From: a virus
IMG/VR virus record: IMGVR_UViG_3300032092_000021
Span: 1-64,000 of that record
Reading direction: 5' to 3' (one strand)
DNA length: 64,000 nt
Under the pieces are notes generated by a model that worked only from the letters and a program-made list of their open reading frames with translations, ran no database searches and was not told the DNA's origin. Below are positions 40,352-40,426 of the stretch, one piece after another. How positions within the stretch are numbered: position 1 is the stretch's first letter; the number at the start of each line of letters is the position of its first letter. A program made the translations under genes and the position numbers.

Positions 40352-40360
40352 TATAAATAT

Positions 40361-40426
40361 GAGTCTAGCTTTTGTTGGTTTAAGCAAGACTGCTACAAAG
40401 AGCCTTGGGTAAAACCAAGGCTTTTT
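40361..40426 (+). ncRNA. Candidate small RNA/3'-UTR element: hairpin with UUGUUGGUUU loop followed by a terminator
   Basis: Stem AGTCT-A-GCTT / AAGC-A-AGACT; the loop is complementary to AAACCAACAA gene leaders. Confidence 0.4.
40401..40426 (+). terminator. Intrinsic terminator
   Basis: AGCCTTGG-gtaaaa-CCAAGGCT followed by TTTT. Confidence 0.85.

Follow-up and report, generated by a model that had tools for sequence, protein, structure and literature searches.

Comparison with relatives shows that a short hairpin directly past the stop codon of an appendage gene in an uncultured crAss-like phage is a genuine structured element: it is conserved, its stem covaries and its loop core does not change. 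The complement of that loop is, among relatives, a conserved, gene-specific box directly 5′ of start codons. The hairpin is probably a phage-made antisense regulator. Our judgement is evenly balanced on the fuller account, in which it would be a terminator-linked regulatory RNA, mostly in a 3′UTR, whose loop pairs with the leader boxes and controls translation.

The phage and its relatives

The stretch of DNA analysed here (the window) covers the initial 64 kb of one phage contig, 75,391 bp in length and with a CheckV completeness of 63%. The contig is AT-rich and carries nearly all of its genes on the plus strand. The 224-aa protein encoded at 41065-41739 matched the CrAss_Ring_2 tail-ring family (PF25702, E = 3.5e-21), placing the phage in or near the crAss-like lineage. 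Two giant genes 3′ of the ring gene (42656-47923 and 47923-53058) likely encode cargo or muzzle-type proteins. The capsid gene (20339-21967) matched a major head protein family, and its relatives in cultured phages, which were crAss-like and Cellulophaga phages, were at most 28% identical. A nucleotide search of GenBank phages gave no match, and no relatives were found with the C-terminal part of the 2177-aa appendage protein as probe. No cultured relative carrying the hairpin element was found; in Flavobacterium phage FpV4, which encodes a ring-protein homologue (27% identity), neither the hairpin nor the leader box was present in the 16.7 kb around that gene.

Relatives of the hairpin were sampled as 80 loci encoding relatives of the 197-aa protein downstream of it (41-97% identity), which together with the window gave 81 loci. 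For the leader counts, the best 80 of more than 600 IMG/VR contigs encoding the capsid protein were kept (85-97% identical).

Assignment of a host from MAG matches to the capsid gene was rejected, as the 14 MAGs, 5 of them labelled Bacteroidota, were mis-binned phage contigs under many labels. Relatives of this phage (L229-L244, some on contigs of 115-120 kb) are binned into MAGs labelled Micavibrio, Fluviibacter, Clostridium, Campylobacteraceae, Rickettsiales, Pseudomonadales, Chitinophagaceae and others; these labels are almost certainly binning artefacts and not hosts. One 95-kb contig (G013, the contig of L079) is classed as a provirus by IMG/VR and, if this is right, its flanks could point to the host. 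The only RNA runs found to contain the phage were four riverine metatranscriptomes from four studies, in which assembled contigs were 90-99% identical to many parts of the structural region (22000-39500) but gave nothing usable over 40352-40427. These runs hint at a river or freshwater habitat; the phage share in them was small, at 6-9% of sampled words. Several contigs of the lineage derive from Lake Mendota series.

A hairpin and an intrinsic terminator at a gene junction

Re-reading of the sequence confirmed the hairpin, loop and terminator of the initial annotation, coordinates included (Table 1), together with its observation that no minus-strand ORF starts at the hairpin. The stop codon of the 2177-aa gene (40349-40351) lies 10 nt 5′ of the hairpin, within a gap of 120 nt between this gene and the 197-aa gene, and the hairpin presents a 10-nt loop (UUGUUGGUUU, 40372-40381). 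A short A-rich linker separates the hairpin from the terminator, in which a terminator scan found 13 pairs, 6 of them G-C, with the U tract next, as is characteristic of intrinsic terminators. The folding energy of the 96-nt region is -33.2 kcal/mol (z = -5.15), which none of 200 shuffles equalled. TAnnTTTG is the Bacteroidota -7 promoter consensus, and the TATATTTG box that fits it can be read as a putative promoter of the downstream tail-ring module. In a cultured crAss-like phage the host polymerase transcribes the middle and late genes (preprint 10.1101/2020.03.07.982082), which makes an intrinsic terminator meaningful here.

Table 1. Features of the hairpin region and complementary leader sites, in window positions
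Feature	Position	Strand	Basis or remarks
Complement overlapping the AUG of the 123-aa gene (ATG 10406)	10394..10406	+	13-nt complement
UUAAACCAACAAAA, leader box of the scaffold-like 407-aa gene (ATG 19086)	19069..19082	+	14-nt perfect complement of the seed
UAAACCAACAA, leader box of the 338/339-aa gene just 3′ of the capsid gene (ATG 22284)	22269..22279	+	11-nt complement
UUAAACCAA, leader box of the 50-aa Cys-rich gene (ATG 28241)	28226..28234	+	9-nt complement
Upstream 2177-aa gene, Cys-rich, Ig-like appendage protein	33818..40351	+	ORF list; weak He_PIG Ig match
Conserved hairpin	40362..40391	+	stem 40362-40371/40382-40391, 10 positions, one A.A mismatch (40367/40386)
Seed region UUUUGUUGGUUUAA, loop plus two closing pairs	40370..40383	+	complementary to the leader boxes
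Intrinsic terminator	40396..40427	+	GC-rich stem GCCUUGG/CCAAGGC, loop GUAAAA, U tract 40422-40426
TATATTTG, fits -7 promoter box TAnnTTTG	40429..40436	+	read from the sequence
Downstream 197-aa gene	40472..41065	+	query for relatives; CrAss_Ring_2 gene next

The hairpin is conserved and its stem covaries

Of two covariance models that were built, R1 was over-fitted to its seed sequences, and even R2 does not recover the copy in the window itself, whose stem has a mismatch and whose register differs; copies were therefore located by script scans. The scan recovered the hairpin and terminator in about 72 of the 81 related loci, comprising 40 distinct hairpins. Five of the nine loci that it missed hold too little upstream sequence, two (L056 and L058) match R2 at this place, and two (L059 and L077) have variant loops. 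The hairpin is found either directly 5′ of the 197-aa gene or approximately 1.4 kb upstream with a gene of ~400 aa inserted, and in all cases a strong terminator follows at a distance of 0-15 nt, where two late gene modules meet; the median terminator energy across the 72 loci is -17 kcal/mol. Each contig carries one strong copy.

The loop reads (G)UUUGUUGGUUU(U) among the relatives, with an 11-nt family consensus of UUUGUUGGUUU, and its core UUGGUU is identical in every hairpin found, across 197-aa proteins that range from 41 to 97% in identity. The stems of different clades are wholly different (AGAGGG/CCCUCU, GUCAGG/CCUGAC and UCAGAAU/AUUCUGA). In a model-fitted alignment, which favours structure by construction but agrees with what the raw sequences show by eye, 91% of stem cells can pair compared with 57% in shuffles, and compensatory double changes occur at all seven stem pairs; none of 500 shuffles scored as high as the real alignment. 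Sliding the stem register by 1-3 columns reduced the pairing cells to 37-53%. In one relative at 60% identity (L002), the intergenic region is 78% identical, compared with 67% for the adjacent gene, and the stem has been rewritten yet is still complementary. The combination of the UUUGUUGGUUU loop and a covarying stem provides the conserved unpaired seed that is expected of a base-pairing RNA.

No Rfam 15 family, C4 antisense RNA and the phage and Bacteroidota motifs included, scored at its gathering threshold anywhere in the window or in any of 12 related loci, and a search of 40200-40600 with E up to 10 gave only sub-threshold chance matches; literature searches by motif and by keyword returned nothing on the hairpin element. 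Two further structures were considered and rejected. A pseudoknot between the loop and the A/C-rich linker was not favoured by their complementarity (3.14 nt observed compared with 2.86 nt in shuffled sequences), and inspection of the aligned loci by eye revealed no conserved complementarity through which the hairpin arms could pair with the terminator as an anti-terminator. Elsewhere in the window, a weak covariance-model match (24 bits) was noted at 56665-56690 (GUCAGAUGCUGGUUUAUCUGAC), inside a 966-aa gene; having no terminator 3′ of it, this is probably a chance match.

The hairpin also sits at a mosaic boundary. Compared with the closest relative (L001), identity is 97% in the intergenic region and 95% in the gene that follows, while the last 600 nt of the giant gene (39750-40351) are 71% identical to L001:2280-2882. 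At this recombination junction, variable appendage genes meet a conserved tail-ring module.

The loop is complementary to boxes in specific leaders

All four complementary sites described in the initial annotation are real, each at a distance of 0-7 nt from the start codon that it precedes (19086, 10406, 22284 and 28241). The three longest matches to the loop core in the genome all fall 0-5 nt before a start codon, a non-random placement, and the four box-bearing leaders give the top four of the 56 predicted duplexes with the genome's own loop (G000), the scaffold leader having the best energy of all (-16.2 kcal/mol).

Viewed within the window alone, this complementarity is not significant. 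The motif AAACCAAC occurs 7 times compared with 3.2 expected, a count that 5 of 100 shuffles reached, and exact 14-nt inverted pairs number 23, compared with 17 +/- 6 in simulations, so that a single 14-mer match proves nothing. It is comparison with relatives that makes the complementarity significant. Across 14 genomes AACCAA was present in 83 of 1291 leaders, 3-5 times as often as non-overlapping permutations of the same composition, and each complete genome contained 4-5 sense leaders with AACCAA(C) where about 0.3 would be expected.

Distinct leader sequences were then counted among the best 80 of the more than 600 capsid-gene loci. The scaffold-like gene upstream of the capsid gene had AACCAA in 69 of 70 leaders (AAACCAAC in 63), and the 338/339-aa gene downstream of it in 56 of 58 (AAACCAAC in 50), while the capsid gene itself had neither motif in any of its 67 leaders. 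The box sits 0-10 nt before the ATG, often in two copies in the leaders of the 338/339-aa gene, and the antisense form TTGGTT was found in none of the approximately 195 scaffold, 338/339-aa and capsid leaders. The boxes lie 3′ of likely transcription starts and also between cistrons. Conserved target sites are thus present at functional positions, as would be expected for a base-pairing RNA.

The initial annotation had described the targets as head-assembly genes, but the third conserved target is the 50-aa Cys-rich gene, which is not a head gene and lies near the start of the appendage operon whose end is the hairpin; its orthologues carry the box in eight further genomes (nine counting this one). 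The site at 10394-10406 has fared less well. Its 13-nt match up to the AUG is real, but among 10 relatives checked 9 lacked a box at the orthologous position and only G007 had it, so the match is probably lineage-specific or due to chance. The 338/339-aa protein itself matched nothing in Pfam or PHROGs, and a search of the PDB with a poor AlphaFold model (mean pLDDT 60) gave no match at E <= 0.001.

The proposal that the host initiates translation without Shine-Dalgarno pairing gained support: the leaders contain no Shine-Dalgarno motifs, and the promoters look Bacteroidota-like, with TTTG-type boxes at the scaffold genes. A second leader pattern, AACC-UUUUAA-n-UUUUAAAACA-AUG, was observed directly 3′ of TAnnTTTG-type boxes (20300-20338, 22000-22040 and 26200-26240), where it precedes the capsid gene, a 71-aa gene and a 452-aa gene, and it could indicate where a further class of late transcripts begins.

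Loop and leader remain complementary across genomes

Comparing each hairpin loop with the leaders of its own genome, all 43 pairs in 18 genomes kept 6-14 nt of perfect complementarity (median 9). Own loops matched slightly better than swapped loops (8.62 compared with 8.23 nt, p = 0.047; p = 0.041 for energy) among these 18 genomes, which are not phylogenetically independent. Several loop changes are compensated in the leaders. The loop of G026 (...AUUUUGG) is accompanied by the leader AAACCAAAA, a G-C to U-A exchange; the loop of G027 (UUGGUUGGU) by ACCAACCAA in both leaders; the same loop change in G003 by AAACCAACCAA in the leader of the Cys-rich gene; and the loop of G016 (GGUUUUAA) by leaders reading UUAAAACC. 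Others are uncompensated, with a loop C opposite a leader A in G002 and a loop G opposite a leader A in G006 and G013, and in these genomes the pairing shrinks to 6-9 nt.

Co-variation of loop and leaders in relatives was the test on which the initial annotation had staked its proposal. The signal is marginal (p about 0.04-0.05) and confined to the flanks of the loop-leader duplex, since the core of the pairing, UUGGUU with AACCAA, is invariant and so cannot covary. Two independently conserved 11-nt consensuses are perfect complements, one shown in a hairpin loop and the other in unstructured leaders of a fixed gene set, each on a fixed strand; RNA-RNA pairing, as initially proposed, is the simplest reading. 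Pairing inside the cell, the existence of a stable RNA and a repressive effect are inferred.

How the RNA would be made

The median distance from the stop codon of the preceding gene to the hairpin is 8.5 nt (1-20 nt in most clades), and the gene upstream varies among relatives from 92 to 2177 aa. A TAnnTTTG box was present upstream of 4 of 42 copies, compared with a background of 8.6%, and thus showed no enrichment. Lying just past a stop codon and having no promoter of its own, the hairpin in most clades is a terminator-linked element of a 3′UTR, and a separate small RNA would need to be released by processing. The free-standing sRNA gene first proposed is therefore not what most clades encode.

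The exception is a clade of five loci (L013, L018, L026, L031 and L057) in which a promoter-like TATTATTG-TATATAAG box lies approximately 10 nt before the hairpin (L013:1590-1640) and resembles the scaffold promoter TTTG-TATATTA. These loci may encode it as a small RNA gene in its own right, with a product of ~70 nt. A AAACCAAC box was also observed there, ~25 nt further upstream of the promoter-like box.

What stands of the proposed loop-seeded antisense RNA is the covarying hairpin, the conserved complementary box and the fixed orientation relative to the coding strand; what does not is its free-standing nature, as it is mostly a 3′UTR element. One consideration that weighs against a regulator is that titration of the abundant scaffold mRNA would require the build-up of an RNA derived from the presumably weakly expressed transcript of a giant gene.

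A possible mechanism

In the mechanism that we favour, the element would be the 3′ end of the late appendage-gene transcript, where a hairpin of 7-10 bp right after the stop codon would display UUUGUUGGUUU. The hairpin could be freed by processing, be made from its own promoter (in one clade) or be active while still attached to the mRNA. The pairing partner of its loop would be the single-stranded box (A)AACCAAC(AAA), which precedes the AUG by 0-10 nt in a small fixed set of late genes comprising the scaffold gene, the 338/339-aa gene and the small Cys-rich gene, with the capsid gene excluded. Since initiation that is independent of Shine-Dalgarno pairing needs an open A-rich leader, the loop-leader duplex would most likely block 30S binding. 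Synthesis of the scaffold, 338/339-aa and Cys-rich proteins would then be turned down relative to capsid as late transcripts accumulate. Post-transcriptional limitation of scaffold synthesis occurs in other phages, for example in the autoregulation of the P22 scaffold.

A bolder version, which we think quite unlikely, is that the AAACCAAC box and the loop form a private, phage-encoded substitute for Shine-Dalgarno control, with a leader code, a regulon of assembly genes and one terminator-linked RNA as the reader; it might serve as a developmental timer, by which scaffold synthesis is shut off once the appendage operon is complete, or as an activating adaptor.

Alternative explanations

The hairpin might instead be a protein-binding RNA site, acting as a boxB/nut-like signal for antitermination into the tail-ring and cargo genes or as a 3′-end processing or stability signal, with the leader match being secondary. 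Such a site would agree with the conserved loop on a covarying stem, which is a signature of sequence-specific recognition, with the constant place just ahead of a strong terminator at a late-module junction, and with a loop that is more strictly conserved than any single leader; lambda nut/boxB shares these traits, being a short hairpin whose stem covaries around a conserved loop and which precedes a terminator in a phage operon. However, boxB binds N protein and has no complementary targets in the genome, and nut sites occur in several copies near operon starts, whereas the present element is a single copy at an operon end with a loop complementary to leader boxes. A protein-binding function would leave this conserved complementarity unexplained, since UUUGUUGGUUU faces AAACCAACAAA in specific leaders of every genome checked. 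In addition, no RNA-binding partner was found among the neighbouring genes, for which Pfam and PHROGs scans were uninformative, and no alternative pairing with the terminator or linker was detected. We consider this explanation unlikely.

The same sites could also be read as DNA. All of them share one 11-bp duplex sequence, and the intergenic copy lies ~50 bp upstream of the promoter-like TATATTTG box, so a phage regulator might bind double-stranded AAACCAACAAA at gene starts and, inverted, in the intergenic region, with the inverted repeat forming part of the operator. The strictly fixed orientation, sense in the leaders and antisense in the hairpin, speaks against an operator, as does the position of the leader boxes downstream of likely transcription starts and between cistrons. 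Moreover, the stem covaries with completely different sequences and the loop has variable extensions; covariation of this kind implies selection for single-strand folding and not for a duplex operator, leaving this reading very improbable. Least credible is a box that acts as a translational enhancer by pairing with rRNA, with the hairpin as a mimic or decoy of the rRNA segment. Enrichment of the box in leaders beyond composition, its occasional duplication and a host apparently lacking Shine-Dalgarno pairing would suit it, but the box is absent from all 67 leaders of the most highly expressed gene (capsid), which argues against a general enhancer, and neither UUGGUU nor GUUGGU occurs in the 16S of a Chitinophagaceae MAG holding a binned relative (this MAG being an unproven host). 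A sponge for a Csr/Rsm-type protein was rejected, as loop and leaders carry complementary and not identical motifs, TTGGTT being absent from the ~195 leaders.

Comparison with known regulatory RNAs

The element belongs to no described family; on the preferred reading, in which the loop pairs with leader boxes, it would be a new RNA family whose type of mechanism is already known. In the c4 antisense RNA of phages P1 and P7 (RF01695), exposed loops pair with the translation-initiation region of the target and control a developmental decision. Both c4 and the present element are phage-encoded structured RNAs with loop seeds aimed at initiation regions, but no sequence or structure match to c4 was found (Rfam, window and 12 relatives). 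Furthermore, c4 is processed from the 5′ part of the operon that it controls and masks a Shine-Dalgarno region, whereas the present element sits beside a terminator where an operon ends and would act on several distant genes through an A/C-rich box, with no Shine-Dalgarno sequence involved.

Staphylococcal RNAIII and the Rsa RNAs resemble it in that one conserved hairpin-loop motif seeds several mRNAs with a complementary motif at the start site, and in that pairing begins as a loop-to-linear contact. They are unrelated RNAs, and their C-rich loops target the generic bacterial Shine-Dalgarno sequence, whereas here a dedicated box is found at approximately 3-10 phage genes and not at the capsid gene. 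With enterobacterial 3′UTR sRNAs of the CpxQ, SroC and DapZ type the element shares its place directly past a stop codon, a terminator in common with the mRNA and, in most copies, the lack of an evident promoter of its own. Those sRNAs pair through linear seeds, require Hfq and are cut free by RNase E; here, by contrast, the seed is in a hairpin loop and processing is putative.

Implications

As a conserved RNA motif the hairpin is new, and it would suit Rfam whatever it does. CrAss-like phages rank with the most abundant of known viruses, and post-transcriptional regulation in them is essentially unknown; as their Bacteroidota hosts initiate translation without Shine-Dalgarno pairing, the usual logic of RNA control through the ribosome-binding site is not directly transferable. 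The present candidate is well defined, consisting of one short conserved RNA, one leader box of 8-11 nt and a few structural genes from which capsid is excluded. If the proposed pairing is true, no earlier regulatory RNA of this phage group would have had a defined regulon, and the element would offer a compact tool for translational control in Bacteroidota.
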